A DNA stretch of 64,000 nucleotides, taken from assembly GCA_051294905.1 (NCBI GenBank), contig CM119373.1:622001-686000 (forward strand). Reading direction: 5' to 3'. A program made the position numbers and the translations under genes. The notes under the pieces are model-generated. The model was not told the DNA's origin, did no database searches, and was given only the letters and a program-made list of their open reading frames with translations. This DNA comes from Botryllus schlosseri (taxonomy: Eukaryota). Each line of letters begins with the position of its first letter. Position 1 is the first letter of the stretch. Shown piece after piece: positions 1 to 52,443 of this stretch.

Positions 1-128
1 GACACCATCTTACACCGTAAAGCCCAGGCCCATAGTGCGACGGTAACCAATCTCCGACGAAGCTCTCTTAACCCTCATGCTTAACTAAACACAACTATAT
101 GAATTACAGATTTTCACGTTAAACTAAT

Positions 129-3100
129 ATGCCAATAATTAACTACCTGTACAAATGGAAAGGACTACAAAGATTGCTGCTGTTAATCCCGTGGGCTTGT
201 TTTGTGAAAACCCAAACTGGCGAAAACCTACTACCCTTATCTGCCATGACCGTGGGGTCCGTCGACGACTTTAATTTTACGGGATGGATACTTTTCGACG
301 TCCCACCAAAGCCGCAAAGAGTTCCGTTGTCACGGCTTTTTATATTAGGAGGGGACTGGCCTCGAAGGGACATTCGACGTCACTATCAGATACAGGTTGA
401 CGACTCGGCGTTTGGTCCGTTGAAAGCCGCACCGCAAAGTTTATACAAATTACTGACACCCATATCATCCATAGGATCCCAAAACGCCAGGTATTGGAAT
501 GAAACCTGGGCGTATGAACGGGAGTGTGTGTGCAGAAGGACTGAGTCGTGGATATCGCCGGATCTGAACCCTGCGGACTACTATACTCAAAAAATAAAGT
601 ACCGACGTGACGGCAGACTGGGAGTGATACATCTCTGGAGGTACGTAGAAACCCGAGTCTTGCATTCTCTACCCCTCGAGACATTACAACGACTAACCGT
701 ATATAAGACAATGATCATAAATTTATTGGAACAATATGAAACAGTGGAAGCAAATTGTCGCTATCAGTTCGGGCGTCATATAGGATGGGATATCGGACAG
801 AATAGATTCAGCCATTGTGTTGCTCACAAAAAACGTCGAAGTAGAGTGATGTGTATAGAGTGCTACTTCATGGGGGAGCAACCGGTTGAGAATTTCTTGC
901 CCCTAGATTTTGTAATACAGGAAGTCGATCCCGGTATTATTGGGAACCCGCCGGATAAGCGGAGAACCTTTTCTAGCAATCAATGGCCCGACAGAGCTCC
1001 TCTGCCGAAGATAAGCGAGAATCTGGTATGGCTACAAGCAAGGAACGAGACATATTCGGAACATTGGCATGTGATGTTCGACGGACGAAAAACCGATACG
1101 GCATTCCTACGCACGATGGCGAAACCCCAACCTTCAGGCATGGCAATGTATGACTCTTACCCAGTTCTTTTGCATAATAGATCGCGGTGCGGACTAAAGG
1201 AAAATAGACAAGTTTGTTCAACGGCTGTTGGAGATCTCAAAACAGCCTTACTATTCAATAGAGTATTATTCGACCCTTTCGAGGGGCAGGCCGTGTTTGC
1301 GGACCCTCGGCAAGGTGCAATGCAAATTGCTGCCCCTGAAAACCGAACGCGGACGGAAATACTTTTACCAACCCTGGGTAACCAAACTTCCTGCTTGATT
1401 TCAAAAGGGTGGGAAACGTTCATACTATCCCCGTCTCGAGAGACACCCGATGGAAATGGACGGGGGGGTATCAAAACCTGGCTATCCCGTCTTGGGGTAC
1501 AATACGCAGAAGAGACAAAGAAACACTTGTCACAACTGAAGGTTCGAATAAGGGGAGGCGTAGAAACGCAGCGAGAAAGACCCGTCTCGCGGGGACAACT
1601 TGAGGAGTTATCCGTGAGGTATAACCTTACCCTACGACCGACATTAGTAGAACAAGTAAAATTATTAAATACGATACTTCTGGATTATATGGCCACACAA
1701 AAGCTAATTCAGGCAGAAGTGGGGGACGAAAAGTTATTTCAGTCTCGATGGATCTATCGGGGGACGTTTTGTGAAGGTTCCCTGGTCTATACGCCATATG
1801 CCTATAGGAATAATGCGGGGGAGAGATCCACCGCTCGAACGGTGATATTAACCGCAACTGATGACCGTGGAAACCATCACGCAAGGATCACATGGACCCC
1901 CGAAGTTCCGCAAACTACTTCGATGATGGTGGGCAGTACGAACACAGAAGCTTTGGGAAATGGGCGTGGCGTAACACCAAGTGAAAAAAGGAAACCAACA
2001 AACAACCGCTCGACACCGTCTCCGGCTTGGGAAATGCTAACGACTGCCACTGAAGCAATGTCGTTACCAAGGTTCCCGCCCGCGCACCAGGAAGTCATGA
2101 GACGGGAGAAGGAATTGGCGAGCCAAAACAAATCGGCGGAGGCGATAATTACCAGAAGAATGACTCACGAGACCACCACGCAAACGAAAATAATCGACCA
2201 AAGGTTAGTAGAAACTGATTGGTCCGGTTTTGCAGGAACTACGGTTTCCTACCAGGTTTCCTCCGATCGACATGTAGACGGTAATACAACACCCGAGGCG
2301 AGTAGAACTGCCTATGTAACGACTAGCCCTCTCCCCAACACTACCGAAACGAGCGAGACTCCAAGGGATCAGGAGGGCGACGTCGCACCCTTGGTGACCG
2401 TTGAACGGCTAACAACAACAGTACCAAAGACTACAGCGCTGAGACACCTACCATCTCTAACTCTAGGATGGCGAATGAAAACGACGCTGGTGCAAGCTTG
2501 GCGATCGCAATCGATGGCTAAAAAAAGGGGAAAAAATGACAATGCCATACCAACCTATTCGACTCATTGGAAGCAACAGTTGCCAACCAATCCACGTAAC
2601 CTACCCGAAAGAACGACGAAAATCAGCGGTGAGGTGTCCACAACAACGCGAGTGCATCCGATTACCACTGCAGACGCGCTGCAGGACTCCAGAGAGGATG
2701 ACGGAACCGACATCGGAACGGACTACCAAAGCCCGGACCACAACCGTAAGGTAAGTACCGGAACAACTGCTTTGTATTCAACAGGAGACGACAAAGACGA
2801 CTCGTCCCCGAGGAGTGTCGAACTGATGAACACTACCTTGGAGTCAACGATGACTGACGCGTCACCACCGCCTGGGCAAAAAAAACGAAGTTTGGGAACA
2901 CCCGCTCCTGAGTATTCCCGAATATCAAGAACCACCGCGGGGAAGACAACCACAGATTTCGTTGACTACAACTATACTCGATGGCTGCACGAACTGGTGA
3001 TGATGGAAGGTGGATATAAGGTAAGAGAATTATCCTTGATCGATAGGGTTATTATGGAAGGTGCGAAACTGATACCTATCATGGAACCAGTGGTTGTAAT

Positions 3101-3272
3101 ATTGGTGGTAACAGGGTTGATAGCTCTGGTGATTGTGTTGTGGGTTGGTTGTATAAGATGTCGTCGGCGTAGAACCCTAAGTCATCTGAGGAACACGAGG
3201 AGGCGTAACGGAACAAGTCAATGGATGGCGATAAGGGTAATACGAAACACAGCAGAGGATAACGAGATTTGA
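129..3272 (+). CDS. Intronless 1047-aa type-I membrane glycoprotein; candidate env-like/viral glycoprotein of an LTR retroelement or endogenous virus
   Basis: Long uninterrupted ORF, visibly more GC-rich than flanks. N-terminal hydrophobic stretch (LQRLLLLIPWACFV), Cys-containing ectodomain, KKRRSR polybasic site (~aa 234-239), many N-X-S/T sequons, Ser/Thr/Pro-rich region (~aa 590-950), TM helix VVVILVVTGLIALVIVLWVGCI then RCRRRR. The env identity is inference; no family motif recognised. Confidence 0.7.
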   Translation: MPIINYLYKWKGLQRLLLLIPWACFVKTQTGENLLPLSAMTVGSVDDFNFTGWILFDVPPKPQRVPLSRLFILGGDWPRRDIRRHYQIQVDDSAFGPLKAAPQSLYKLLTPISSIGSQNARYWNETWAYERECVCRRTESWISPDLNPADYYTQKIKYRRDGRLGVIHLWRYVETRVLHSLPLETLQRLTVYKTMIINLLEQYETVEANCRYQFGRHIGWDIGQNRFSHCVAHKKRRSRVMCIECYFMGEQPVENFLPLDFVIQEVDPGIIGNPPDKRRTFSSNQWPDRAPLPKISENLVWLQARNETYSEHWHVMFDGRKTDTAFLRTMAKPQPSGMAMYDSYPVLLHNRSRCGLKENRQVCSTAVGDLKTALLFNRVLFDPFEGQAVFADPRQGAMQIAAPENRTRTEILLPTLGNQTSCLISKGWETFILSPSRETPDGNGRGGIKTWLSRLGVQYAEETKKHLSQLKVRIRGGVETQRERPVSRGQLEELSVRYNLTLRPTLVEQVKLLNTILLDYMATQKLIQAEVGDEKLFQSRWIYRGTFCEGSLVYTPYAYRNNAGERSTARTVILTATDDRGNHHARITWTPEVPQTTSMMVGSTNTEALGNGRGVTPSEKRKPTNNRSTPSPAWEMLTTATEAMSLPRFPPAHQEVMRREKELASQNKSAEAIITRRMTHETTTQTKIIDQRLVETDWSGFAGTTVSYQVSSDRHVDGNTTPEASRTAYVTTSPLPNTTETSETPRDQEGDVAPLVTVERLTTTVPKTTALRHLPSLTLGWRMKTTLVQAWRSQSMAKKRGKNDNAIPTYSTHWKQQLPTNPRNLPERTTKISGEVSTTTRVHPITTADALQDSREDDGTDIGTDYQSPDHNRKVSTGTTALYSTGDDKDDSSPRSVELMNTTLESTMTDASPPPGQKKRSLGTPAPEYSRISRTTAGKTTTDFVDYNYTRWLHELVMMEGGYKVRELSLIDRVIMEGAKLIPIMEPVVVILVVTGLIALVIVLWVGCIRCRRRRTLSHLRNTRRRNGTSQWMAIRVIRNTAEDNEI

Positions 3273-3454
3273 AGGTAAGAGAATCGATTCTTGAAGTTAG
3301 GTGTAAGTTCGTTATGTAGTTAGGATAGAGAAGTATGAGATGCAATTTTATAATTTTGGGAAATTCTTAAGTAAACTTGTGATAGGCATCGGGAATACAA
3401 AAACAATACACGCGATGCATTGTTTGCGGTTGGTTTCAAGTGAAGTATTTTATA

Positions 3455-3645
3455 TAATGGGCGTAAACGGAAAAAACTGAAACCTCGTAACTAGAAATAT
3501 GCTAAGTCATGGTAAGTTAGTTATGTAAAGAAGCATAAATGAAAGGCAGTGCATCGTTTATAATAGGTGTCAACTGTATTATTTTACGTAATGGGCGTAA
3601 ACGGAAAAAAATGAAACCTCGTAACTGGAAATCTGCTGAGTCATG
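3455..3645 (+). repeat. 57-bp imperfect direct repeat pair downstream of the glycoprotein ORF
   Basis: taatgggcgtaaacggaaaaaa.tgaaacctcgtaact.gaaat.tgct.agtcatg at 3455-3511 and 3589-3645. Confidence 0.9.
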
Positions 3646-3668
3646 AAATGCTAATTCGAGAGAATTGT

Positions 3669-5487
3669 AAAAAAAAAAAGGGTTGACGTGTAAAAATACT
3701 TAGTCAATAAAGTGATCACCATGAACGGGTAATGTTGGTATATAGTGCACTAGTTCCACTTGTTGGATGGACAATCAGGCCCCTGTAGGGCTCTAGCTAT
3801 GATACTGGGTAGGCTACCTTATGTTGTAGTTTTAGCAGTGGCTCAAGTGCAGTTTTATTGGCAGCCCCCCAACAAAGGATGCCATATTGTAACTTCGATT
3901 GGATTAGGGATCTAAACAGATAGCCTCAGAAGAACCCAGACTGACATGAAGCGTCCAACGCTGTAGAACAGGCCGCACTTCGGTGATAATTTATTGTCTA
4001 GGGCAGGGGCTCTCAACCCGCGGCCCGCGGGCCGCATGCGGCCCGCGACATCTTTCATTGTAAACGCAATTTCTACTGGCACGACATTGTTAAATAATAA
4101 CATAGCTACTTAGCTCTCTTATCGCACAGGCTCTGTCTCGCTTGATTACTGATTCTTTGATGTTTTCTGGTTTATTGATATATGCTCGAGTGTAGATAGT
4201 TATTGTTTTGAATCGGTATTCGCCTGGAGGAGATTAAACGGCGGGAACTGGGTTTGTAAGTTTGCGTGGAACAATCAATTTGCTTTCTCAGATACGAATG
4301 GAAAACCGATGTGACATAGTTGTCGTAACGAAGCGTAGAGGCTAAAATTATACCACGACACTTTCTTCTGAAGTTGTATCGCCTGATGTTAGAAAAAACA
4401 TTGCTAGCTAGGTGTCAAACCCATCAATCCATATTTCGAGGCAGTGCTAAAATTGTCGACGATGTTACAGACTCATGGTTCAAAATTGCTTGGAATATCG
4501 CTAAACTCATGAAATCTGCCAGAGAAGGTGTCATTTCAATAAAACCTAAGCATACTGTGCGAATATTCGCTGCTTCCGGAACTTCACAGCAAGGACAACA
4601 TTACTTGACAAATGTTCAAGCTACACTTGTCTTTCATCGCATGTTCTGAAATACGTTGCCGCGCAGAGAATTTTAGCCTAGCATCGGACGAAACCACTGA
4701 TTTCACAGACATTGCATAGCAAATTATCTGGGTGCTTTTTATCAGAGTGGAAATGATGGCAGGGCAAACGCGGGGAGGGCCGAGCGAAAAACATCAACTC
4801 GATGATAATTCTTGGATTATCCACCGATCAAGGATAATCCCAGAATTATCAAATAAAAACTGAAATAACTCCGCTTCTACAGCTTGGAATTGGGTCAAAT
4901 TTGTTTTGCATATGGTTTTTGAAGACAGCCCAACAATTTCATGGGGTTGGCAGAAAATTTGAAAAAAAAAATTTTTTGCGTTTTTGGGCAAATTCAAAAT
5001 TTTCAAACTCTACGAAACCCGCGAATATTGGTTGGAATGAATTCAAATTTTGTGTGCGTCGTTTTTTAAGGCAACCTAACAATTTAATCAAGTAACCAAC
5101 AAGATTCAGGAAAAAATGTTATTTTTGAACAGCCCTACTGTCCATTAATGCTTCACAATGTAGAAAAATGTACTAAACGCCTGTATACGACTGGTAAATA
5201 GGCTATAGTAGCCTAAATTTAATAGTAGCCCACAAATACATGGAAATATTGTTTTGCGGCCCGCAACGTATTTTGCTGTTAAAATGCGGCCCGTTAGGCA
5301 AGGGAAGTTGAGAACCCCTGGTCTAGGGACTGAATATGACTCTTCCAGGATATGTCCTAGTACAATAAAACGCCGAGATATTTGACATTATCTGTGTCGG
5401 AAGCGGGCTGACCAGCGATGCTACGGTTCCGGGATAAAGTTTTATTATTGAAAGAGACTTCTGCATCGCAATGTGCAACTACATACA
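3669..5487 (+). mobile_element. Possible polypurine tract and 3' LTR (TGTA...TACA) interrupted by a hAT insertion
   Basis: A11GGG purine run 3669-3682, TGTA at 3689, AATAAA ~5364, TACA ending 5487. No second LTR in the window to confirm the boundaries. Confidence 0.3.
4004..5320 (+). mobile_element. Non-autonomous hAT (Charlie/Buster-like) element with transposase relic
   Basis: TIRs caggggctctcaac/gttgagaacccctg; perfect 8-bp TSD gtctaggg (3996-4003, 5321-5328). Relic FSLASDETTDFTDIA*Q near 4670-4745 resembles the hAT catalytic 'LALDESTD' motif. Confidence 0.9.
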
Positions 5488-6166
5488 TTTCAAGAATCGC
5501 TTCCCAGCTTCAATATGTAGATTAATGGCGAATTATATGCCCGAAAGAATGTATAGCCTAATCCTATCCATTCTCATCGATCAGTCTTTGCGGATCCGGT
5601 GTCAACTGATGCGGTTCCTCAAGTACATAATGACATTTTTTTAAATTTATTGCGGTACATAACTCCCGAATACACGGAAACGATAATGTGTCACACAATA
5701 TTCTGTGACTAAAATAACATTTTCCACACATAAACGTTTTTGTAGTCAGAACTGAGGGATAACCAAAAAACGTAAAAACGATAACTTCCAAAATTACTAA
5801 ATTCCAACTGATAAATTAATATCGGAATTATATTTAGAGTCAACAAGCTCCTGACTGGGTCAGTGCTAGGTCGATTCCACCACCGCGGACAAAGCCAACC
5901 ATAGTCATATGTATATAAACGACATTAATTGTACTAGTCACGTAATAATTAAATTGATTAAAAAAAACATTGATTTTAAGTCATTTGTGAACGGAAATCC
6001 ACATAAAATTTCGATGTGATGATCAGTCGATTTCTTTCTGTAATAATCGGCAACATTGGATATTCAAACGTAATAAGCGATCAGCATTTATCCATGATGT
6101 AATTGCTGCCACATATAGGACCCCGTTACGATTGTTAACACTGTGGTATAAAAAGGCTGTACGATT

Positions 6167-6504
6167 CAGGCCTGGACAACTAGAAGATTTTCAGCTTTAC
6201 GAAATTAGATAACAACTAGAATTAATGAATTTACAAAAACTAGGACATTGAATCAAGCTCAGGTCAATTGAAATAAGATTTCATTTTCATAAGCATGTGA
6301 ATGACAAGTGTCTGTACATCAAGCTTATTAGCTCGTTTACCCCAATTTGGTTCTCCTGTAGCATTTACAGAAAAATCACAGCGATTAGATTATAATTAGA
6401 ATGAGAGTAAAGAAACTTTTCACATTCGATTAGAATTACATTACAGGAATTTCGTTATAGTTATACTAATTCGACCACTCGAATTATCTAGCTGCCCAAG
6501 TCTG
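6167..6504. mobile_element. Old hAT-type MITE rich in attagaatt motifs, present in the 3' flank of all three pentraxin copies (also 36056-36352, 53671-54027)
   Basis: Degenerate TIRs caggcctggacaactag/ctagctgcccaagtctg; degenerate 8-bp TSD close to atacgatt at all three positions. Confidence 0.65.
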
Positions 6505-6593
6505 ATGCGATTGCCCTCGTCAGATCATGATCAATCATGATGTTATGTTGATTGGAAAGTTTCCTTGCCGCCCAAATACAAATCCTGCTGGAC

Positions 6594-7111
6594 CAGTGGT
6601 TCCCAACCTTTTTGTCTTCATTTCCCACAACCCTTTATTCCGAGTCTTCATTCCCCACTACCCAAAACTACTATATAGTGTTACCCTATTTTGAGATCCC
6701 AGAAAAAGGACACTTTTTATAAACTCGAAAGCGCCACGAAAACTGTGATTTAGAACATTTTTCGACTGATGGTATTGTGTTGACTACAAAAAGTTGACCA
6801 CTTTGATTCGACTCCGTTTATTTCACGAAATTTTGACGTTCGCTGCGTCGGGCTCGCATTTTTCGTGGCATTTAAATCCTATCGAATGAGACTAGGACAA
6901 ATTCCCAGAAAAGAGGAGGACATTTAGGCGTCCCCCGAGTACAATTTCAATTTATAATTTTCGATACATACATTTCAAAGCAGTTAACTGGCAACGGTAA
7001 TCGCGCATCGTTCTCCCTAAATATGTAGACCATCCTGTATATACTACTTATAACGAATGCGTCTATTCCCCAGCAGAAAACATTGAATTCCCCACCGGTT
7101 GAGAACCACTG
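6594..7111. mobile_element. hAT-type MITE just 3' of pentraxin copy A
   Basis: Termini cagtggttcccaacc/ggttgagaaccactg; absent at the paralogous site in copies B and C (cgctggacgaagg). Confidence 0.8.
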
Positions 7112-7231: not shown

Positions 7232-7902
7232 TCATTCATTTTTGTCGCATGCGCCAGTCCAAGTATCAGTAACTCCGTGATTAGTGACGATTGAATTGTC
7301 GCGATCGAAAGTCACGTCTGCATCGCTTGGACAGTGGCAACCATTTGATTCGTACATTTCAAGTATTTCCGTCGCATTCAAAGCCCTCTTCCAAATGATA
7401 AAACCTTCTATTTCTCCGTGAAAGCCTTCATCTGAAAACATTTGTTTACCCGGACTGGTTCCGCTGATTGGGCCGTATTGTGAGTGACCCAAGATTAGTA
7501 CGCCATTACGTGGGACGGGATCAAGATTTTGAACTGTGGTGGATGGTAGAGATGAGCCGTTAACGAAAGTATCTGTCGATGATGCTGACTTCACTATGCA
7601 CAAATGTGACCGGGTTGTTATGGAGTTCATCATCGCAGTGAAGTGTTTTCTACTCTCGAATCTGACTTTAATGGACGGCGAATATTTATTAATCTCCACG
7701 TTAAAGGTTTCGCACTCTGTTGAGCTTGAAATACTAGTCAACGCGCAGTAACTGAGCAACGTTCCGCCCACTTGCTTTCCTTCCGTTGTAGGGCGAACCC
7801 AAGCGCATGCCGTTAATGACTTCATCTCCGAAACCATGCCTCCATACTGAACATATACGCTGTGGTCTTCACTCGGGAATACGAAGTGAGATGTGTTGCA
7901 CG
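7232..7902 (-). CDS. Pentraxin-domain terminal exon, copy A
   Basis: Acceptor ttcag at 7903-7907, phase 1. Motifs MKSLTACAWVRP, GTLLSYCA, SHLCIV, FVNG, GVLILGHSQY, FHGEIEGFIIWKRAL match the pentraxin/LamG fold. TGA at 7232-7234. Confidence 0.9.
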
Positions 7903-12305: not shown

Positions 12306-14938
12306 ACCCGAGTTGCGTCTCCATCTACATGTCGCAGACTCGCAGTACCTGCGTACTCACACTTTTGAAATCAAGTTGTGAATCGGATTTGATGGTGACA
12401 ATCCAATCACTTTAGAATCTCGCGGCTTATTCAGGGAAAACTGAAATCTAATTTAGCGCAATATCACCTGACTGTGTGACTTCAACACGTTCTTTTTCCG
12501 CCCGTCTTTTCAAGTCGCTCATAATGGATTCAAGAGATGTGCCGTCCTGCAAAATGTGTAACATATTCATTATCATATGCGCGTGAAATACGCTATAGTT
12601 CGCACACGGCACATGCATAAATGTAGTGTCGTTATGATCGTGAATTTACGGTGGTATCGTCTCACTCTGAATTGTGAATAGGACTAGAATTAGTGCCAAT
12701 CATTATTTCCTGGTGTGCTTTCTTTAATATTAATACAATGTGTATGTTTATTTACACTCAGGATATTGATTGTATAGTGCTCGCATGTATTCGAATAATT
12801 ATGTTACCGATAGTAAATACATTGAATCGAGAGTGGCCAACCTGCGGCCGTAGAAGGAAATTTGTGCAGCCGTTAACATGCAAATTCACTTTACGAATTG
12901 ACTCTTACGAATTGAGAGATTTTAATTAATCTTAAATTTTTCTTCGCGCTACATGCGATTCTATGTGTATTCAATTTTCAATTTTATTGTAGAAGGGCCA
13001 TTTGCAATCTGAACCCCACAGTACAGATGCGAACAGCAGAGGAAAATGATACGCCACATATACAAATACGAACTAGGAATCTTGTATTCCTGCTTATCAT
13101 GAAAGAAACTCGTTTGTAATGCGTTTGGGCGATTCCAATATCTTTCCGCACAATACCGACAATTCTGATGCGTGGTCATGGTCAAGAAATAACAGCAATA
13201 AAGTTACTAATAACTGTTGGCCCAACCGAAGATGTATCATCAATTTATCATTATAACTTGCCTAAATTTTCGAACACAGTCCCTCCATCAACTCTACGGA
13301 ATAACCTGATCACAATGGGCTGAGAAAGGATAATATTTAATGGTTGTATGTGATCATTCTGGAGTTCCGCGTGAATATACATGGAATGTTTACCTATAGT
13401 GTCCTATATATGGTGTGGACACAAGCAAATCTCACGGCTCAGTCAAATCGGTCCATATCACACTTTCCGTTTAGTCAAAGGCAATTTGACGGTGATTTTT
13501 GACCAGATTGCTGAGCATTACATTTGATAAAACGGGAATCAATCGAAAGCTACACGAGCGTGAGAGTGTGAATGCTCAATCGGCTGCGCAACCACACCTG
13601 GTCACAGGCGGCATGGTTGCGTCACAATACCAAACTCCGTTACAGCGCAACATTCGAGACTGATTTTGGGGAGTTCCAGGACCACGAACAGAATAAAATT
13701 TATATTTCCGTCACGGACCCCCGCGGATCCCTCCGAGTTTACTTCAAATTTAGCTTGATTATCGTGCAACCGTCGTATGTCTCGTGCAAATATTAAGTAA
13801 TAAACAGCAACAAGATGGTCTTTTTTGTAAATAACATCATACTATATGCAGATATTGGGCAGACTATTATTATTTCAAAGCGAAATCTGCAGCTGCATTT
13901 ATTGAAATATGTGGCAGTGCCTCGAAAATCTGCACTTTCGATTTGATAGACGAACGAGTGCCGAAAATCCATTACCATAAAGATAGGTGGTGGCGAACGA
14001 CGAACGTAATAATAACCCGTAACGCTTCCGATGACATCTTTGAGTATGACATCAACATACATGGCAACTTATCACGTCTAGCCTTGTCAATTCTATCCAG
14101 CAGCTCATTTTGAGGTTATTCGGGAATAGTGGTTACATGTAGGCTATATCAAGAGAGAAAATGGTTTCAATCGCTTTATTCGGGCAGATTACGAAACAAA
14201 ATTCAGAATTCCGATTTCAAACGACTGATTATTCATTTGCTGAGACTGATAAATCCAGATGCAAACTGTTTTGCAAACATTTCTAATTCTGATTGACTTT
14301 ACTACTCCAACTTTTTTTAAACATTCCACAATCCTAACTAAGATCTGCTAACAGAAAGATTTTGATATTAGTAAGCTATTGGCAATTCGGCAATTAAATT
14401 GAGTTTTCACAGTAGGATATTTGATATCAGACCGCCATTCTGTCGATGTGAGTTCTGCAATTTTAGCAGTAATGAAGCAAAACTGCTGGGTGATTTTCCT
14501 AATTCAGAAAATTACAAATCCGGTTATCAATCATTTTGCAGATCTAGCGGTTTCGCGGACCCTCGGTTGAGAATCACTGACCGAGAGTGTAACAACAATT
14601 CCGTTATATTCACGAAATCTGATACTGAATGAAATGCAATCAATTTTGTCCTGAATTTATTTCGAGTAGGTATAGGCCCACTAAATGGTTAGGTGACGTT
14701 ATATTTTGGAGGAATACCCATGCATCGATGGATTACCATTTCGAACAATTACGCAAAAGGATTTTGTTGTCGTGTTGCATAAACTTGCTCACCTCACAAT
14801 TTCCATGAGAAGTCCAACGGCCGTTGACGTAACTTCTGCTGCAAAATTGGCCTGAAATAATTGGGATTGGTGGATTAGCGCACGTGCTTTCCAGACTAAA
14901 TTACGTAAAGTGTGACGCCCTGTAATGAAGATCTATAA

Positions 14939-15812
14939 CAGTGGTTCTCAGTCGGGCGTCCGCGAGACATCCAAATTTGCAAAACGATTGATAGCCTAAT
15001 TTGTATTTTTTCAATTAAGTAAATCACGAGCGAGATTCGCTTCATAACTGATTACATAACTGGTAAAACTTTACGACTCATATTACACAAATAGCAGTCA
15101 GAAAGGAAATATCCTGCTGTACAAACTCATTTTAATTGATAAATTGACAGCAGCCTAATGATACAAACATACATTGCTATTTGAAGATGCTTTGTCGGGG
15201 TTTGTGAAAAAATAAAAAGTTTGGGTAGTAATAGGTCAATCCGGGTGACTTGGAAATGGATACAAGATGTCAGTCTCAGCATACTAGGGCGCAGTCGCTG
15301 TGAATGGACATTTGTGATCCATTTTTTCTGCAATTTACATAATAACCAAAAATAATTTCATGATGAGCTGCTAGATAGAAATGGCTAGGCTGGACGTTCA
15401 TTAAGTAATCTGTTTTTCAATTGTGGTGCCTTAGGTGTGAACGGAAACGTTACGAGTTAACAGTACATGTACAGTACATTCCCACCACTTATCTTTGGGG
15501 AAATGGATTGTCAGCAGTCGTTTATATCAAATCAAAAGCGAGTGTTTTCAAGACACAGCCAGTTCTTTCAACAAATGCACCTGCAAAATTCGCTTTGAAA
15601 TAATAAAAATAGATGCAATTTCTACATAATGTATGATATTATTTATATTTTGTTGGTGTTTATCACTAGCCTAAAGTTAAATATTGAATAAGTCATATCA
15701 CGGTTGCACGATAGCCTGATTGAGCTGAATTTTAACGAAAACTTAAGGGAGTCCGCGGGGGTCCTTGATTGTCAAAATGGGTTCGCGAATACAAGAAGGT
15801 TAAGAACCATTG
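14939..15812. mobile_element. hAT MITE of the cagtggttctca-ggtccgcg family (other copies 31523-32212, 51111-51986, 62321-~63030; reverse copies ~13710-14579, ~48670-50730, 63038-64000)
   Basis: TIRs and 8-bp TSD atctataa (14931-14938, 15813-15820); the 31523 copy has TSD gcctaatg; shared internal sequence among copies. Confidence 0.9.
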
Positions 15813-16205
15813 ATCTATAAGGTCTAAAGCTAAGCAATTGGAAGGGACATACTCTATCTACCTTGGAGTGACATGTTTTGAAATGATTTATCGTGTTACT
15901 TTTTATCAGTCATCACCATCATCCATCTGTATTTATGCAACTTATATCTTCATATTTCTCCTTTATCGTCATTATCGGATCCACACACGGCTGTAAATAG
16001 CAGGAATAATGGACACCCCTAAGCTGGAACTACTCATGTAAGCTGGATCAGTCACAACGACACACCATAAGCTGTCGAGCTTCGTATCGAAATGAAAAGA
16101 TAGGATTATGCAGTCTGATTGTCACTGTATCCTCCCTGCTTGCCTTCCAGACAAAGTCACAATTTGCGTATAAATGAAGAACTAGTATTCACCAACTATA
16201 CTCAC

Positions 16206-16278
16206 TTGAAGTACAGGCAACTGTCACAAGCAATGCAGTCAAACACAAAGTTGTCGAGAGGAGTGGAAACACGACCAT
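16206..16278 (-). CDS. Signal-peptide first coding exon, copy A (MVVFPLLSTTLCLTALLVTVACTS)
   Basis: ATG at 16278, hydrophobic 24 codons, phase-1 gtgagt donor; paralogue at 52371-52443. A minimal spliced model with the 3' exons gives 314 aa in frame. Confidence 0.75.
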
Positions 16279-17496
16279 CCTATCTGACTTACAGCAATCA
16301 TTGTAACTCTACCTTACTGCAACACGCCAGGATAAATGCTAACATAAAACGAGGAAGTTAAGTCTGAGTAGGTATGTTTTTGAAAATTATGTGTGATTCG
16401 GATGAGCATGAGGTGACTAACTTTGGCTCTGCGTATTTTTAATTTGAAAATGAACGTGTGTACGTTTTGGGCTGTTAATAATAAACAGGCCGCTATCGCT
16501 ATATTAAACATACAGTACCTTTCATTATACGTTAGCGACTCCATCTCCCCGTCTGCTCTGTGAATCTGCGTGCTAAATTTGTCCCGGGATGAACTTCTAT
16601 TATTCCAGGCATACATTTTAGGAACGCCATTGAAGCCTAAAGTAACGCATTATAGTAACGCGACGACATTTTTCCTCTGATGCCATATCTAGGATTGTGT
16701 TTAAAATAAATATCGATTTAAAGCAAACATGTTTGAAACAAAGCCCTTGTTTAAAAATTGTTTTTTGAAGTGACGTCATAGTGAATTGATGCTCACAATT
16801 GAAATGCCGGGTAAATATTAGCGATGGTGTGAACCTCTGAAAGGTTCAGGTTCGTGTGAACGCGAACCTTTTTGAAAGGTTCTGTGTGAACGCGAATTTC
16901 TGAGCGGTGTTCTGAGCTGTGTTTATTGCGTTCCAATTTAAAAACAATCACGAAATAACTTGCATTACTCGTCTAATTGAGAAAGGAGACAGTGTTTCTC
17001 GGCGTGCGCGCCATCAAATCGACAAGTGCAGCAACATCAGGTTTTGATCGTCTAGCGTCGCTTCGTCTGGTTAGTAATAATCAAATTGCTCACTTAAGCA
17101 TCACTCCCGGTTTGTGAAATGCAAAGAGTTCATTATCTTTCAAACCTCACCATTGGTCATCAGTACTGCGCTGATGACGGAATTAAAGATATGACGAATA
17201 TCCACAGTACAGTTATTACGGAGTACGCGGTACTCCCTGCTTATGCAGATTTGGCGCCTATGTGTGGACATGGTTAGTTAAAAAGGCGACACCAACGAGG
17301 CAAAAATTACTTATTTTGTGAACAATTATTTTTAGCCAATTCAAACAATAGTAGTATCATATATCATCTTATGAAATACATCGGAGCAGTAGCTAGTTTT
17401 CAAACAACCGGCTCCATATGGATTTTATGCAGAGCTTCTGCTTCAGCTCTATCTCTGTTTAAAATGCACGGCTTCTGACTCCTTCTCTGGCTCCAA

Positions 17497-20885: not shown

Positions 20886-23800
20886 CACTGTGTTTAGTAC
20901 TATAAGTAGTATGATTAGCTGGGTTTCGTGCAGGCCAATCAGAGAGCGCCACGTCATCCTAATTGCCACGCCCATTTTCATACCCTAAGGGTACATTCAT
21001 CTGCTACGTCATGTGTGCCACATCATCAAGCGCCACGCCTATAGTGCCACATCATCCATCCATTGCAATATCATCGCTGCATTGATTGCCGCATCTTGAT
21101 ACTTTTCTCAGATATTGTATTATGTGTATTTAGGACAAATATCATCCGTCCATATGTTTTAAACTTGATTTTATGTGTACAAGTTACGGTTTCTGCAGTT
21201 TCCACATTTTACGACTTATGATTGCCGCGTCAAAACATACCTTAGCTAGAATCGACAGATTTTCTTTATGTGTATTTAAGACTATGTATTTAAATTCCTA
21301 TTCAGATTATACGTAAATGCGAGAAATATGATGTCTATGCAAGGCTATATTCTCCGGATAATATTATTAATATCAAAATTCTACACATCATCACTAATTA
21401 CTTAATATAAAATGCGATTTTGAGCGCTGCGACTTGATAATATGAATCCCTACGCTTCTGATGCATGATTTTTTGTGATAAGGACCTAGGTAACATTCAG
21501 AGTCTACAACGATTGTTTGGATATACATTATAGCAATACCCCACTAAACTATAGGCGGTTATATTACTCTATTGGTCAGAGATAACTCATCCGTCCATAT
21601 TTTTAAACTTGATTTTATGTATACAAGTTACGCTCTCTGCAGCCTCCACATTTTACGACTTATTTTCATTAGACGCAGGCAAGCGATTCTCCAGTTCGGA
21701 GGTACGGAAACAAATCACTCGCATGTGCGCGTTCCGAACAGTCTTGTAGAATTTTCTAAAGTCGTAACAGCTTATAGTAGCATATACGCGAATCCCAAGG
21801 TGAAAATAATCGAACGAACTATAGCCGTAGGCGTGCGATTCGCAGGGCTTTATTTATACAAACACTTTCGATGCCTGTACGCGAACCCCAGCGTTATAAC
21901 GATTAGGTCTAATTAGCACGTTCTGAAGCCGTAAATTTAGTCAACATCATTGAGATAGCCATGATTTAAATATGGTGATCGAGTGTGACAATAGCACTCG
22001 TCAAGGTTAGACAAACATAACCTTAAACTACTATCTACTTCACAAAATATAAAGTTGTAAAAGTAAGCAGATTTCTATGAAAACCTGTTAAATAGAAGTA
22101 AAAGTAGCCTAGAAACATAACTACTTACCGAAAAATCGTTACGTAGAAGTGGGGTTAGTCTACGAACATAACCACTTACTTACTTTGAAATCTCTACTTG
22201 TACTTGTATTCGAGCGGAATTGCATCTATCATGTGTATTTAGGGCTAATGCGACATCACTATGTTGACGACAGGGCTGATTTGAACACACAAATTTTGCG
22301 AATTAAACTTATCGCTCACCACGGACACTCAATGAAGAGCACCCTGGAGCACCCACAAAAATGCTCTACAATTCTTGACATATAATATACTGAGCATATA
22401 ATAAGCTGACAAAACTTATTGCCGTGCGACCGATGCATTAATGACTTTAATACTCTGTATTTTAAATTATCACACCTATGAGTCGAAATGTTGTTAAGTA
22501 ACTCATGTTTTCAACATAACCTAAACGTAAAGTGCACGAATTTCCATGTTGATCAAATACCAAAAACTTTGCTTGCTTTCAAAGTTAGTACCTAAGCGCA
22601 TAACAGAATTTACCCAAAAAAGTCGGTACTCCGAAAATTTTGTGAAGTAGAGCCTTTTGGTGTTGGACTTAAGTTCCAATGAACAAGTGTTCACGTGAGT
22701 TCGAATCCCAAACCCTGTACGTTATATTTGAGTCAAAAAAGTTATTCATACTCATGATTCGAGATGTTAAGTAACTCATGTTTTCAACATAATGTAAGCG
22801 CGAAGTACGCAAAATTAGATAACATACAAATACCACAAATTGCGCTAGCTTTCAGAGTTGATAAGTTTAACTCTTTTAACAAAGTTGTATGTGCGCAATA
22901 TATATTTATCGTAAGTCCTGCACGTTCATGATTTCGTCCGAGTTTGAGTTGTAGAAAATATTATACCAACATCGCGACATCTTTCAAAAACAAAACCACG
23001 GTCACTGCTTGAGAGACCTATTAATGTCATCCCAATAATTTAGTTACTTCCACAAAATAGTAGATACGTATTTGACTTACGTTTCACAAAGCTAACACGC
23101 ACACAATTTACTTTAGTAACGAAAAGTGGTGAGATATCGAAAGATTTCTCCTTACATCAAAACAACTAGAATGTGGAACTATATTAAAAACGTTCCTAAC
23201 CCTTTGCACACCGCTGATAAATCGCACAAGCAACAAGTTTAGAGAATCGATATATACATAGTCAATTTTCATAATAGAATTAGCATGCTAAACATTAAAT
23301 ACTCACCTTGAAAGTTGGTACGCAGTTGTAGGCCATATTAACAATGCACCATACCAAATTTCGTCACACATTTCATGATGTAACACCTTTGGAACTAACG
23401 CAGCTTTCTACAGACTTTAGCATGAATCTGTTTTTCGGTAGCGTAGCAGGTACCTATACATAGTAAGCTTTAATAACGGAATTATCATGCTAATAATCAA
23501 ATTCCCACCCTGAATCTTGGTACGCAGTTGTAGGATAATATGAAAATGCACCACTCTAAATTTCGTCACACATTTTATGATAGTTGTAGGACATTGTGAT
23601 TATGCAGCATACCAAATATCGTCACACATTTCATGATGGAATAACTTTAAATCTAACGCAGTTCTATACCAACTTCGCGTAAATCTGTTTTTCGGTAGCG
23701 CGTACCTATGCATAGTCAGCTTTAATAACGGAATTATCATGTCAATATGTGACTCCTCAACTTGAAACCTGGTACGTAGTTGCAGGATTTGGTGATTATG

Positions 23801-26800
23801 TAGCATGTCAAATTTCGTCACACATTTGATGATGGAACAACTTTAAAACTAACGCGGCTCTACATCGATTTTTTGCGTACATCTGTTTTGCGGGAGCGTA
23901 TAGCACGTACCCATACATAGTCAACAATAATAATGGAATTGCCATGCTTAGCATAGAATACCAACTCGAAACTTGATACGTAGTTGTAGGACATTATGGC
24001 AATGCACTATGCTAAATTTCATCAAACATCTAATGATGAAACACCTTTAAAACTAACGCAGTCGAATACCGACTTTTATGCATATCGGTTTTGCATGAAC
24101 ATAGCATATACCTATACATAGTCAATTTTAATAACAGAATTAGCATGCTAAACATTAAATTCTCACCTTGAAGGACATAATGACAATACACCATACCAAA
24201 TTTGATCACACATTTCATGATGTAACTCCTTTAAAACTAACGCAGTTCTCTACACACTTTTGCGTGAATCTGTTTGTCGGTAGCGTAGCACATACCTATA
24301 CATAGTACGCTTTTAACGGAATTACCATGCTAATAATCAAATCCCGACCCTTAAACTTGGTACGCAGTTTTAGGACATTATGAAAATACACCATACCAAA
24401 TTTCGTCGGACATTTCATGATGTAACACCTTTAAAACCAACTCAGTTCTATACCGACTTTTGACTAAATCTGTTTTTCCGTTGCGCAGCACGTACCTACA
24501 CATAGTATACACACTCAACTATAATAACGGAATCACCATGTTAATAATCGACTCCCCACCTTGAAACTAGGTACGCAGTTGTAAGACATTATGACAATGC
24601 ACCATGTCAAATTTTGTTACGCATTTCATGATTGAACAGCTTTAAAACTAACACAGTTCTATACCGACATTTGCGTAAATCTGTTTGGCGGGAGCGTAGC
24701 ACGTATTTGTGCATAGTCAACTTTAATAACGGAATTACAATGCTAAACATTGAATGCGTAACTTGAAAACTGGTTCACGGGTGTAGGACATTATGACAAT
24801 GGAACATATTAAATTTCATCACACATTTCATGATGGAACACCTTTAATTGAAGCCTACGGAACTCTGCAAATTGTTTCGATTTATTCTGCCCGTTTTAAT
24901 TTAAGATAAGGAAGCCCATTTTACTCAATGTATCGATGCGTACGTTACTCTACAAATTTTTCTGATTAATTCTCCCTATGTTAATTTATCATAAGAAAGA
25001 TGATTTGACTCCTAAAGTACGAAATACTTGCTCGCTTGAGCTAAGCCGCAGCGCTTGGAGTGGAATTTTACGAAGTATGTGGACGCATTTCAAAGGAGCA
25101 TACTTTACGCTCTAATTCGATTCCCACACATTCCATATAATTACTAACTGAACCATTGAGTACCAGCCTTGAAATTTTGCGTAGTACTAGCTGGCATGTA
25201 TACAATTTCATGGCACCCGACAGTACGACGGAGACTATCAAAATATCGAAAGAAGTTCTCTATTCTTTTCTGAAATAATCAAGGTTTCATCAGGACTTCC
25301 CTTCATATAAACTCCAGCAGAATCATTATTAACCCCTCAAGTTTACTCAATTTACTCGAATTTGATACTCGAGTACTAAATCCCTATTTTCCGCAAGTAT
25401 GATAGTGGCTATCGCACGATACTCAACGATTCGTAATTTTGCTGGAATACAAGTACAATTAGGGATTTAAAAGTAACTAATATAGGTGGTTATGTTTGTA
25501 GGTTATTTACACGTATAGTGATCGGTCTTTCAGGACAAACTACCTACTTTTAGGACTTCATATTTTAAAGTAGTTTGAGGTTACGTTTGTATCACCTTGA
25601 CAAGTGCTATGATTATGCTGCATACCAAATTTCATCACACATTTCATGATGGAACAACTTTAAAACTAACGCAGTTCTATAGCAACTTTTGCCTAAATCT
25701 GTTTTCGGTAGCTTGTACATATACATAGTCAGATTTAATAACAGAATTATCATGCTAATATGTGACTCCTCACCTTGAAACTTGGTACGTAGTTGTAGGA
25801 CATTGTGATTATGCAGCATACCAAATTTCCTCACGCATTTCATAATGGAACAACTTTAAAACTAATGCGGTTCTACATCGACTTTTTGCGTACATCTGTT
25901 TTGCGTGGGGGGCGTATAGCACGTACCTCTACATAGTCAACTTTAACAACGGAATTACCATGCTTAACATCGAATCCCAACTCGAAACTTGATACGTAGT
26001 TGTAGGACATTATGGCAATGCACCATGCTAAATTTCATCACACATCTAATGATGGAACACCTTTAAAACTAACGCAGTCGAATACCGACTTTTACGCATA
26101 TCTGTTTTGCGTGAACATAGCATATTACGAATCGTTGAGTATCGTGCGATAGCCACTATCATACTTGCGGAAAATAGGGATTTAGTACTCGAGTATCAAA
26201 TTCGAGTAAATTGAGTAAACTTGAGGGGTTAATAATGATTCTGCTGGAGTTTATATGAAGGGAAGTCCTGATGAAACCTTGATTATTTCAGAAAAGAATA
26301 GAGAACTTCTTTCGATATTTTGATAGTCTCCGTCGTACTGTCGGGTGCCATGAAATTGTATACATGCCAGCTAGTACTACGCAAAATTTCAAGGCTGGTA
26401 CTCAATGGTTCAGTTAGTAATTATATGGAATGTGTGGGAATCGAATTAGAGCGTAAAGTATGCTCCTTTGAAATGCGTCCACATACTTCGTAAAATTCCA
26501 CTCCAAGCGCTGCGGCTTAGCTCAAGCGAGCAAGTATTTCGTACTTTAGGAGTCAAATCATCTTTCTTATGATAAATTAACATAGGGAGAATTAATCAGA
26601 AAAATTTGTAGAGTAACGTACGCATCGATACATTGAGTAAAATGGGCTTCCTTATCTTAAATTAAAACGGGCAGAATAAATCGAAACAATTTGCAGAGTT
26701 CCGTAGGCTTCAATTAAAGGTGTTCCATCATGAAATGTGTGATGAAATTTAATATGTTCCATTGTCATAATGTCCTACACCCGTGAACCAGTTTTCAAGT

Positions 26801-29800
26801 TACGCATTCAATGTTTAGCATTGTAATTCCGTTATTAAAGTTGACTATGCACAGGTACGTGCTACGCTCCCGCCAAACAGATTTACGCAAATGTCGGTAT
26901 AGAACTGTGTTAGTTTTAAAGTTGTTCAATCATGAAATGCGTAACAAAATTTGACATGGTGCATTGTCATAATGTCTTACAACTGCGTACCTAGTTTCAA
27001 GGTGGGGAGTCGATTATTAACATGGTGATTCCGTTATTATAGTTGAGTGTGTATACTATGTGTAGGTACGTGCTGCGCAACGGAAAAACAGATTTAGTCA
27101 AAAGTCGGTATAGAACTGAGTTGGTTTTAAAGGTGTTACATCATGAAATGTCCGACGAAATTTGGTATGGTGTATTTTCATAATGTCCTAAAACTGCGTA
27201 CCAAGTTTAAGGGTCGGGATTTGATTATTAGCATGGTAATTCCGTTAAAAGCGTACTATGTATAGGTATGTGCTACGCTACCGACAAACAGATTCACGCA
27301 AAAGTGTGTAGAGAACTGCGTTAGTTTTAAAGGAGTTACATCATGAAATGTGTGATCAAATTTGGTATGGTGTATTGTCATTATGTCCTTCAAGGTGAGA
27401 ATTTAATGTTTAGCATGCTAATTCTGTTATTAAAATTGACTATGTATAGGTATATGCTATGTTCATGCAAAACCGATATGCATAAAAGTCGGTATTCGAC
27501 TGCGTTAGTTTTAAAGGTGTTTCATCATTAGATGTTTGATGAAATTTAGCATAGTGCATTGCCATAATGTCCTACAACTACGTATCAAGTTTCGAGTTGG
27601 TATTCTATGCTAAGCATGGCAATTCCATTATTATTGTTGACTATGTATGGGTACGTGCTATACGCTCCCGCAAAACAGATGTACGCAAAAAATCGATGTA
27701 GAGCCGCGTTAGTTTTAAAGTTGTTCCATCATCAAATGTGTGACGAAATTTGACATGCTACATAATCACCAAATCCTGCAACTACGTACCAGGTTTCAAG
27801 TTGAAGAGTCACATATTGACATGATAATTCCGTTATTAAAGCTGACTATGTATAGGTACGCGCTACCGAAAAACAGATTTACGCGAAGTTGGTATAGAAC
27901 TGCGTTAGATTTAAAGTTATTCCATCATGAAATGTGTGACGATATTTGGTATGCTGCATAATCACAATGTCCTACAACTATCATAAAATGTGTGACGAAA
28001 TTTAGAGTGGTGCATTTTCATATTATCCTACAACTGCGTACCAAGATTCAGGGTGGGAATTTGATTATTAGCATGATAATTCCGTTATTAAAGCTTACTA
28101 TGTATAGGTACCTGCTACGCTACCGAAAAACAGATTCATGCTAAAGTCTGTAGAAAGCTGCGTTAGTTCCAAAGGTGTTACATCATGAAATGTGTGACGA
28201 AATTTGGTATGGTGCATTGTTAATATGGCCTACAACTGCGTACCAACTTTCAAGGTGAGTATTTAATGTTTAGCATGCTAATTCTATTATGAAAATTGAC
28301 TATGTATATATCGATTCTCTAAACTTGTTGCTTGTGCGATTTATCAGCGGTGTGCAAAGGGTTAGGAGCGTTTTTAATATAGTTCCACATTCTAGTTGTT
28401 TTGATGTAAGGAGAAATCTTTCGATATCTCACCACTTTTCGTTACTAAAGTAAATTGTGTGCGTGTTAGCTTTGTGAAACGTAAGTCAAATACGTATCTA
28501 CTATTTTGTGGAAGTAACTAAATTATTGGGATGACATTAATAGGTCTCTCAAGCAGTGACCGTGGTTTTGTTTTTGAAAGATGTCGCGATGTTGGTATAA
28601 TATTTTCTACAACTCAAACTCGGACGAAATCATGAACGTACAGGACTTACGATAAACATATATTGCGCACATACAACTTTGTTAAAAGAGTTAAACTTAT
28701 CAACTCTGAAAGCTAGCGCAATTTGTGGTATTTGTATGTTATCTAATTTTGCGTACTTCGCGCTTACATTATGTTGAAAACATGAGTTACTTAACATCTC
28801 GAATCATGAGTATGAATAACTTTTTTGACTCAAATATAACGTACAGGGTTTGGGATTCGAACTCACGTGAACACTTGTTCATTGGAACTTAAGTCCAACA
28901 CCAAAAGGCTCTACTTCACAAAATTTTCGGAGTACCGACTTTTTTGGGTAAATTCTGTTATGCGCTTAGGTACTAACTTTGAAAGCAAGCAAAGTTTTTG
29001 GTATTTGATCAACATGGAAATTCGTGCACTTTACGTTTAGGTTATGTTGAAAACATGAGTTACTTAACAACATTTCGACTCATAGGTGTGATAATTTAAA
29101 ATACAGAGTATTAAAGTCATTAATGCATCGGTCGCACGGCAATAAGTTTTGTCAGCTTATTATATGCTCAGTATATTATATGTCAAGAATTGTAGAGCAT
29201 TTTTGTGGGTGCTCCAGGGTGCTCTTCATTGAGTGTCCGTGGTGAGCGATAAGTTTAATTCGCAAAATTTGTGTGTTCAAATCAGCCCTGTCGTCAACAT
29301 AGTGATGTCGCATTAGCCCTAAATACACATGATAGATGCAATTCCGCTCGAATACAAGTACAAGTAGAGATTTCAAAGTAAGTAAGTGGTTATGTTCGTA
29401 GACTAACCCCACTTCTACGTAACGATTTTTCGGTAAGTAGTTATGTTTCTAGGCTACTTTTACTTCTATTTAACAGGTTTTCATAGAAATCTGCTTACTT
29501 TTACAACTTTATATTTTGTGAAGTAGATAGTAGTTTAAGGTTATGTTTGTCTAACCTTGACGAGTGCTATTGTCACACTCGATCACCATATTTAAATCAT
29601 GGCTATCTCAATGATGTTGACTAAATTTACGGCTTCAGATCGTGCTAATTAGACCTAATCGTTATAACGCTGGGGTTCGCGTACAGGCATCGAAAGTGTT
29701 TGTATAAATAAAGCCCTGCGAATCGCACGCCTACGGCTATAGTTCGTTCGATTATTTTCACCTTGGGATTCGCGTATATGCTACTATAAGCTGTTACGAC

Positions 29801-52370: not shown

Positions 52371-52443
52371 TTGAAGTACAGGTAACTGTCACAAGCAACG
52401 CAGTCAAATACCAAGTGGTCGAGAGGAGTGGAAACACGGCCAT
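52371..52443 (-). CDS. Signal-peptide exon, copy B (MAVFPLLSTTWYLTALLVTVTCTS)
   Basis: ATG 52443, phase-1 gtgagt donor; paralogue of 16206-16278. Confidence 0.75.

Follow-up and report, generated by a model that had tools for sequence, protein, structure and literature searches.

The forward-strand open reading frame at positions 129 to 3272 of a 64-kb window of Botryllus schlosseri DNA (the whole stretch analyzed here) raises two related questions: what kind of membrane glycoprotein does it encode, and what kind of element carries it? An earlier note, made from the letters alone, had read it as an env-like glycoprotein at the tail of an enveloped retroelement or endogenous virus. We place a probability of about 55% on a more specific reading, namely, that the product, P0001, is a fusion-dead paralogue from an undescribed family of class I-type fusogens and would serve as an attachment or glycan-shield partner on the particles of a Merlin-ended element.

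The frame is intact, as the earlier note stated, and encodes a putative type I membrane glycoprotein of 1047 amino acids (aa). It is the longest of the eight ATG-initiated ORFs of at least 120 aa (the next has 254 aa), which bears out its description as the only long intact one, and its stop-to-stop frame is the longest of the seven in the window that reach 150 codons (the next has 295). The probability of such a frame remaining free of stops by chance is about 1e-24.5. Upstream, a forward-strand frame at 1 to 84 is open from the window edge for 27 codons plus a stop and ends 44 nt before the P0001 ATG; it may represent the 3′ end of a gene farther upstream in the same element, and repeat-level read depth in sequencing run X1 extends to position 1. 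There was no Rfam match in positions 1 to 7000 and no tRNA in the 64-kb window. One neighboring host exon, judged by eye, has an acceptor-like pyrimidine tract and AG near 7902.

The ORF sits in a multi-copy mobile element that ends at about 5618. In run X1, which may be the source sample, depth is about 12 in the flank, has a median of 377 over the 5′ part of the ORF and of 5696 over its 3′ part, and is 13 after 5616 (in 234-nt bins; summed contig depth does not equal copy number). This multi-copy depth supports the mobile, virus-like setting first proposed for the glycoprotein. Other copies of the ORF carry at least seven 1-nt deletions among the 12 indels listed, and 30 variants, from 40 of the 347 sites listed, divide into 9 synonymous and 21 non-synonymous changes (p 0.53 for the neutral expectation). 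Run X9, labeled "RNA?", has a profile broadly like that of the DNA run and was not counted as transcript data, and X22 yielded 23 partial reads. In X24 (3% of the run read), almost no reads fall over 1 to 2808, and a depth of 1.9 to 4.2 in one orientation covers 2809 to 3744, a signal that would be sense and 3′-biased if this is a 3′-end library; with short derivatives at an abundance about 15-fold higher, these reads are not assignable to this copy.

The relatives of P0001 tell more about its nature than the protein does by itself. Six matches at E ≤ 0.001 were found among 1.84 billion representatives, to which one contig, L001, adds a further protein, and all of these relatives are unnamed. 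Seven distinct sequences cover the family's cleavage point. In four of them (P0004, P0005, P0006, and the L001 protein), R-x-K/R-R is followed by an apolar peptide, and the same four also carry long heptads and a transmembrane (TM) segment. The furin site is absent from the remaining three (P0001, P0002, and P0003), which have the head in common with the fusogen types; in P0002, a minimal RSGR lies close to the cleavage-site position. Hydropathy fails to split the two groups, the L001 peptide scoring 0.77, below the best P0001 window at 0.98, and the tree, with its long branches, fails to resolve the no-furin pair (support 53/0). P0003 is full-length, aligns with P0004 and P0005 across the cleavage site, and has the same plan as P0001 (signal, head, no site, short helices, a stalk with 27% S+T, and TM), so this plan is not a private decay of one copy.

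Class I fusion proteins, among them retroviral Env, coronavirus S, and influenza HA, combine a furin site, an apolar peptide, an inner coiled coil, an antiparallel outer helix, and a TM segment. When P0006 aa 435-730 was modeled as three copies, the score was 0.76 versus 0.00 for the best control, in a job unlike the calibration set (three copies of a eukaryote-associated protein) whose score may reflect likeness to solved six-helix bundles. Among solved pairs, 21 of 30 attained the score mark, and among single chains 0 of 23 did so; in the P0006 runs at least 36% of contacts agreed, with a pLDDT of at least 70. Contacts in the model follow heptad steps along 435-571 and form antiparallel pairs at 541-600, 544-596, 548-592, and 552-586/589. 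P0006 is thus predicted to be a trimer of hairpins on the class I fusogen plan; its language-model features lie nearest to those of CoV S2, HA, and Fusion_F0 (0.86 to 0.88), which we treat as a lead only. All four furin-site proteins are predicted to be class I-type fusogens, the site being present in 4 of 4 and the trimer coming from the P0006 model.

Consistent with the earlier note, which recognized no known fusion-protein family, no catalogued family was matched in Pfam and PDB sequence searches with P0001 and its relatives, which returned nothing meaningful, including no match to paramyxovirus F or herpes gB. Fold searches of two low-confidence models (mean pLDDT 42.7 and 40.8) gave no match at E ≤ 0.001, and VIA paired these weak models with helical hairpins of a generic kind (best Z 8.7 and 6.6, within background), HIV gp41 being among the tied rows. 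This outcome speaks for neither a new nor a different fold. The ESM Atlas held no usable match for P0001 aa 28-600, word-index protein searches found no relative beyond P0005 itself, and the viral contigs scanned contained 0 loci matching the family. Metagenome contigs gave 0 matches with P0001 and 1 with alignment A3. The sole prokaryote-genome match (L002; E 1e-3, 26% over 74 aa) was dropped as likely chance.

P0001 itself has the outward features of a class I envelope protein, largely as the earlier note described them. The signal-like N terminus (aa 1-30, positions 129 to 218) is weakly hydrophobic (KD15 1.59 at aa 12-26, by hydropathy only; the model places a helix at aa 4-28). Of the 13 Cys in the protein, 11 precede aa 550, and the ectodomain is enriched in sequons (13, versus 6.3 in shuffles; 33 of 5000 shuffles reach 13). 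One strong hydrophobic segment (aa 988-1006, KD19 3.27) is followed by a basic cytoplasmic tail (together, positions 3090 to 3269), and a similar anchor is found in P0003 (pairwise E 1e-4). The SU-like head (aa 93-393, positions 405 to 1307) is homologous to the part of the fusogen-type relatives that precedes their furin site (BLASTP pairwise E 4e-13 to 2e-17 against P0004, P0005, P0006, and the L001 protein), and within it aa 138-251 is the sole region that the model places with moderate confidence by pLDDT.

Homology beyond the head is marginal (hhalign P 0.056; HMMER gave no significant match there). A reversal-motif profile built from three fusogens, the motif being picked by eye, scores best in P0001 at aa 534 (15.0 versus 7.7 for the next best) and in P0003 at aa 497 (19.7 versus 6.7), in the same alignment column; these scores were matched or beaten by 228 and 41 of 2000 shuffles, respectively. 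Helices are predicted at aa 444-531 at a pLDDT of about 36 to 52, and, as judged from sequence comparison, these helices plus the motif at aa 534-557 (positions 1458 to 1799) are the likely counterparts of the inner helix and the chain reversal in the fusogen relatives. At the place that corresponds to the furin site plus fusion peptide in the relatives (aa ~425-443, positions 1401 to 1457), P0001 has no RxxR, and it lacks the priming cleavage site that stands directly before the fusion peptide of a class I fusogen. Where the relatives have outer and membrane-proximal helices, P0001 has an S/T/P-rich stalk (aa 566-985, positions 1824 to 3083). The earlier note was right about this region in kind but not in length, as it spans about 420 rather than about 350 aa, and with 25% S+T and 32% S+T+P it is moderately mucin-like; its 6.9% Pro and low heptad score (0.30) do not suggest an outer (HR2) helix by the TM segment. 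Without the furin site and outer helix of its fusogen-type relatives, P0001 is probably not a fusogen, contrary to how it had been taken.

The reading that we prefer would run as follows. A fusogen gene was presumably duplicated to give the P0001 gene. With neither cleavage nor an outer helix, the product could not fold back to draw two membranes together; the stalk would instead hold the conserved head off the membrane, where the head would bind the target cell and the neighboring fusogen would carry out fusion. More tentatively, and at odds a little short of even, a new order of enveloped elements that rely on reverse transcription may have P0001 as its second envelope gene; in that order, a Merlin/IS1595 transposase at inverted ends would replace integrase and LTRs, and the duplicated copy of the fusogen would have become a stalked attachment protein. 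The same origin would also be compatible with action on the host cell, where P0001 would mask the fusogen receptor or poison fusogen trimers and thereby limit re-infection. P0001 has lost the fusion parts but retains the head and, probably, the inner helix, its long glycosylated stalk would be able to mask surfaces, and env-derived receptor interference, known from retroviruses, is a precedent. We nevertheless regard such a host-side role as unlikely, given that the P0001 gene belongs to a multi-copy element and not to a fixed host locus, and that the analogous baculovirus protein occurs with virion membranes, according to the available part of its description (PMC4864199).

The nature of the element is best judged downstream of the ORF, where the direct repeat and the purine tract reported by the earlier note are both present. 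The repeat, on the forward strand, has two 107-nt copies (3416-3522 and 3550-3656, 80% identical), and 11 nt of terminal sequence recur weakly within it at 3566-3576 (E 0.043); the tract, at 3669-3682, is followed by TG at 3684 and AATAAA at 3706. This arrangement could belong to a Gypsy or BEL LTR retrotransposon with env as its third ORF, the 3′ LTR then running from 3684 to 5604. A CA at 5603-5604 that has a 4-bp inverted match, a further AATAAA at 5364, and a site depth at 3696 twice that at 2825 (5427 versus 2714) are in keeping with this, the end is not placeable to the base from 234-nt bins, and Gypsy elements with an env gene are found in invertebrates, tunicates included, according to the available parts of PMC13524379 and PMC4402516. 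Binned depth, however, lacks a two-fold step at 3684 (6427, 4857, 3426, and 5696 before it; 5916 at 5383-5616). It steps instead about 15-fold at about 2703, inside the ORF, with none at the purine tract, which leaves the LTR suggested by the earlier note unsupported.

The step at 2703 finds a counterpart at the right end of the repeated unit (5596 to 5618, reverse strand, 5′-GG inward), where depth is 5916 in bin 5383-5616 but 13 in bin 5617-5850; next to it, 5619-5626 is one flank of a candidate 8-bp target duplication whose partner lies beyond the window. An internal inverted copy of this end stands on the forward strand at 2703 to 2716 (7 of 7 terminal bases and 12 of the first 13, with one gap). 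The terminal 7-mer, GGAACCG, occurs once on the forward strand of the 64-kb window, at 2703, and would be expected about 0.02 times in the 130 nt around the step; this coincidence was noticed after the depth table had been examined. With a step at 2703 the plateau should reach 7091, and 6427 was observed. Position 2703 is likely the left end of a high-copy non-autonomous derivative, and the behavior of the 3′ region suggests the inverted end of a DNA-transposon-type element, not an LTR. Within it lies a separate nested repeat, about 10 times more abundant, at 3745 to 4003, which resumes past an insertion to about 5361 (from depth and joints, with limits drawn from 234-nt bins). The insertion (4004 to 5320), hAT-like and non-autonomous, has inverted ends, lies between the two copies of an 8-bp target duplication (3996-4003 and 5321-5328), and is absent from other copies, whose empty-site joints skip 1325 nt.

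On contig L001, a DDE_Tnp_IS1595 transposase (E 1.8e-19) lies directly upstream of the fusogen relative. The element likely inserts like a Merlin DNA transposon and not like a retrovirus; an inverted 3′ end, together with a relative beside a Merlin/IS1595 transposase, makes the Gypsy/BEL third-ORF capture that the earlier note favored a less likely setting. Errantivirus Env proteins are, in the available part of PMC13524379, of F or gB type, and the Pfam/PDB searches, like the weak-model fold searches, gave no such match, so that an LTR element now seems rather improbable. If a Merlin-type element is correct, its transposase would recognize the GG-ended termini and would also have amplified the shorter derivative from the end-like site at 2703. 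The likeness of the window's element end to a GGAAC at L001:1944 was not significant (1512/2000 shuffles), and a presumed Merlin terminal consensus was not confirmed in the open-access literature.

It is very improbable that P0001 itself is a fusogen, activated at KKRRSR or by some other protease and shielded by a mucin-like region in the manner of filovirus GP. The basic cluster at aa 234-239, the predicted helices, the TM segment, and the basic tail might be read that way, and the earlier note had offered RRSR (aa 236-239, positions 834 to 845) as a furin site. However, the ectodomain has 4 RxxR versus 6.7 expected by chance and no R-x-K/R-R, and RRSR lies inside the head, is unconserved in the family alignment, and precedes a predicted beta strand rather than an apolar peptide (KD15 0.48); it appears to be a basic loop, not the family's cleavage site. 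The stalk, moreover, occupies the interval between helices and TM where an outer helix would be needed, whereas the mucin region of filovirus GP precedes its cleavage site, and relatives with the full apparatus exist. As for a single-copy intronless host receptor or domesticated env gene, which an intact, sequon-enriched ORF amid decayed repeats might have suggested (a single-copy orthologue being part of the earlier note's own refuting case), it is refuted by repeat-level depth to about 5618, some 30 times that of the flank, and the frameshifted sister copies, neutral-looking variants, and lack of a host-family match in the searches argue the same way.

If the fusion-dead paralogue reading is right, a class I fusogen family without a catalogued relative would be added, and a route to a separate attachment protein would come into view: duplicate the fusogen, lose the cleavage site, and put a stalk in place of the outer helix. 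An envelope system would also be tied to a bacterial-type cut-and-paste transposase, a combination that we did not find described in open-access literature, and Merlin-type DNA would gain a mechanism for cell-to-cell or horizontal spread. No Merlin element with envelope genes was described among the open-access matches listed. A retroelement named "Lusen" is reportedly tied to a Merlin-like enzyme; the name was not found among the open-access matches listed (best 20 of 221 and best 20 of 81), a scope outside which lie Repbase and subscription journals, so a prior description is possible. Kuafuorterviruses and Troyka were ruled out as the family, both having LTRs and integrase in the available parts of PMC11673190 and PMC12440569.

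Set beside known systems, the relatives resemble class I fusogens in their furin site, apolar peptide, long inner coiled coil, antiparallel outer helix (as modeled), and TM segment; they differ in matching no named family by sequence or, with weak models, by fold, and P0001 departs further in having neither cleavage site nor outer helix. A close parallel is the baculovirus group I F-like protein Ac23, a retained fusion-dead homologue (available part of PMC4864199, as for the rest of this comparison). Both are fusion-protein homologues without a furin site that have extra sequence before the TM segment; Ac23 lacks fusion function, as P0001 probably does. Unlike Ac23, with which it has no sequence match, P0001 would leave fusion to a probable paralogue rather than to an unrelated protein such as GP64; its family's cleavage point follows a head of about 430 to 530 aa, a 130- to 420-aa S/T-rich stalk replaces the outer helix, and the gene lies on a genomic mobile element. 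A retained fusion-dead homologue alone is thus a known type, and novelty would rest on the combination of envelope and transposase, which is direct in L001 and inferred for this copy.

As in Errantivirus and Tor elements, an envelope-type glycoprotein gene with signal, sequons, and TM is carried by an invertebrate mobile element; their env genes are paramyxovirus-F-like or herpes-gB-like and LTR-flanked in the available parts of PMC13524379 and PMC4402516, whereas P0001 matches neither type, lacks a furin site, and lies by an inverted-looking end. The words "Merlin," "inverted repeat," and "mucin" are absent from the main text of PMC13524379. Terminal 5′-GG, the DDE_Tnp_IS1595 transposase in L001, and the behavior of the non-autonomous derivative recall Merlin and IS1016-IS1595 as covered by the available part of PMC8101967, where the described Merlin elements carry a transposase gene; for this copy, whose left end lies beyond the window, neither a transposase nor a target duplication is seen, and "envelope" and "reverse transcriptase" are absent from the main text of that source. 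Teratorn, finally, offers a precedent in which viral genes are combined with a cut-and-paste transposase and inverted ends; there, in the available part of PMC10175614, a piggyBac element with TTAA ends is fused to a 180-kb herpesvirus DNA genome, whereas here a Merlin-type enzyme would be joined to class I-type envelope genes.

The open reading frame at 129-3272 (+ strand) is intact, as the earlier note had claimed, and at 1,047 aa it is open for far longer than chance allows. Its product, the env-like glycoprotein P0001, also carries several of the other features claimed for it: a signal-like N terminus (weak), many sequons (13 in the ectodomain versus 6.3 in shuffles, 33 of 5,000 being as high), a region rich in S, T, and P (aa 566-985, S+T = 25%), and a single TM segment (aa 988-1006) followed by a basic tail. 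The protein has 13 cysteines, and searches of Pfam, PDB, and Atlas did not recognize it. The proposed furin site, RRSR, carries no weight because RxxR is rarer than in shuffles (ectodomain, 4 versus 6.7) and the motif sits within the head domain, where it is not conserved among relatives.

An exhaustive phmmer search with P0001 aa 1-600 returned 6 unnamed proteins (E ≤ 0.001), and a metagenome scan added one further relative, on contig L001. The head domain (P0001 aa 93-393) is common to all full-length relatives (pairwise E, 4e-13 to 2e-17). Leaving out P0007, which is too short, and P0008, a near-copy of P0004, 7 distinct sequences extend through the part that follows it. We defined two groups of relatives by the presence or absence of R-x-K/R-R followed by an apolar peptide; this is found in 4 of the 7 (P0004, P0005, P0006, and the L001 protein) and absent from the other 3 (P0001, P0002, which has a minimal RSGR, and P0003). 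Hydropathy alone fails to split the groups (0.77 to 2.15 with the site versus 0.83 to 0.98 without), and a tree of head domains did not resolve a single loss of the cleavage site from several (support, 53/0).

Three copies of aa 435-730 of P0006, modeled together, scored 0.76 (best of 3 controls, 0.00), with pLDDT of at least 70 and contact agreement between runs of at least 36%. In the calibration, which fits a three-copy job only roughly, 21 of 30 solved pairs but none of 23 single chains reached the mark. The model has a long central coiled coil (435-571) and a chain turning back (541 contacts 600, 548 contacts 592, and 552 contacts 586/589), predicted contacts that we read as a trimer of hairpins, as in class I fusogens. 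The model's pass may nevertheless be a product of likeness to solved bundles. Language-model features were nearest those of coronavirus S2, hemagglutinin, and Fusion_F0, all below 0.9 and a lead only; monomer models were weak, and fold searches based on them were uninformative.

After its head, P0001 has shorter predicted helices (444-531), of low confidence, and then a motif (aa 534-557) resembling the chain reversal of the cleavable relatives. Homology in this part is marginal: hhalign gave P = 0.056, the motif scores were equaled by 228 and 41 of 2,000 shuffles, and HMMER gave nothing significant. The top-scoring motif positions of P0001 and P0003 nonetheless share one alignment column, and the match of P0003 to P0004 and P0005 runs across their cleavage site. 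The TM-plus-tail regions of P0001 and P0003 are alike, and both proteins have stalks (~420 and ~130 aa; S+T, 25 to 27%) where the cleavable relatives have an outer helix (S+T, 12 to 13%). These sequences suggest that P0001 is a paralogue unable to be primed or to fold back, its noncleavable plan apparently being kept in at least 2 full-length proteins that are 23 to 27% identical.

The literature offers an analogue in the F-like protein of group I baculoviruses, described in PMC4864199 as lacking a furin site, having lost fusion, and staying on virion membranes; P0001 also lacks its family's furin site and is likely fusion-dead. Our preferred role for P0001 would be attachment or shielding on particles. 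The main rival is that it acts by receptor interference.

Contigs of sequencing run X1, possibly the source sample, were aligned to window positions 1-7000, giving summed depth rather than copy number: the flank had ~12, positions 1-2574 had a median of 377, the 3' part had a median of 5,696, and depth fell to 13 after 5616. Depth so far above the flank indicates a multicopy element. Other copies have 1-nt deletions within it, and its variants (9 synonymous and 21 nonsynonymous; n = 30, among the 40 of 347 sites listed; p 0.53) look neutral. A hAT-like insertion (4004-5320) with an 8-bp duplication is missing from other copies. Flanking it, within the element end, is another short repeat of very high abundance (3745-4003 and 5329-5361), which finishes in a small hairpin and CTAG, recalling a Helitron 3' end.

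The claimed direct repeat (3416-3522/3550-3656) and purine tract (3669-3682) do lie downstream of the frame. The sequence would allow an LTR spanning 3684-5604, given the purine tract, the TG and CA, and an inverted match of 4 bp, and one site-level depth pair is compatible with doubling, but binned depth has no step at 3684. Depth instead steps ~15-fold between 2696 and 2825, and at 2703, on the + strand, lies the sole window copy of a 7-mer matching, in inverted orientation, the element's right end at 5618; ~0.02 such terminal 7-mers are expected in 130 nt, the coincidence with the step having been noticed post hoc, from the depth table. The site is the top match among 5,500 positions to the first 14 terminal bases. 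A step placed at 2703 predicts a next-bin depth of 7,091 in X1 (6,427 seen) and 128 in a second run, X9 (151 seen). The simplest reading is that 2703-5618 is an abundant nonautonomous derivative with inverted ends starting with GG. A single-copy gene is ruled out by the depth contrast between flank and element.

On contig L001, the fusogen relative, which has two internal stops, directly follows a DDE_Tnp_IS1595 transposase (E = 1.8e-19); the contig did not match the window at the nucleotide level. Immediately 5' of the transposase are broken reverse transcriptase frames (1-1895; RVT_1 E = 8.8e-28), by eye of non-LTR type, which suggest animal host DNA in this metagenome contig.

Elsewhere in the window, a 4,451-bp inverted repeat (20987-25437 and 26124-30574; 99.8% identity; spacer, 686 nt) contains 211-bp tandem arrays and is either a foldback-type element or an assembly artifact. 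A ~4.4-kb duplication (12306-16656 and 47212-52829; 85 to 93% identity) has its second copy split by ~1.2 kb holding a partial reverse transcriptase frame (49294-50178). Three paralogous pentraxin/Laminin_G_3-domain exons (7232-7837, 36691-37131, and 54218-54982, - strand), 78 to 84% alike in DNA, suggest a tandem host gene array.

The earlier note's reading stands as to an env-like, mobile sequence. P0001 is, however, less likely to be the fusogen of an LTR retrotransposon than a disarmed second envelope protein whose element has Merlin-type ends; for the whole proposed mechanism of the protein and its element, we put the probability at about 0.55. Among the papers listed by searches of the open-access literature, none described a Merlin-type transposase combined with an envelope, and the available portions of PMC5718144 and PMC12859917 do not mention a Merlin-envelope element. 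The published systems compared here are of other kinds: errantivirus Env is F-type or gB-type, in LTR elements (PMC13524379); Tor Env is furin cleaved and carried by an LTR element (PMC4402516); Kuafuorterviruses and Troyka have LTRs and an integrase (PMC11673190, PMC12440569); and Teratorn is a fusion of piggyBac and a herpesvirus (PMC10175614). The putative inverted ends of 2703-5618 start with GG, as Merlin ends do (PMC8101967).
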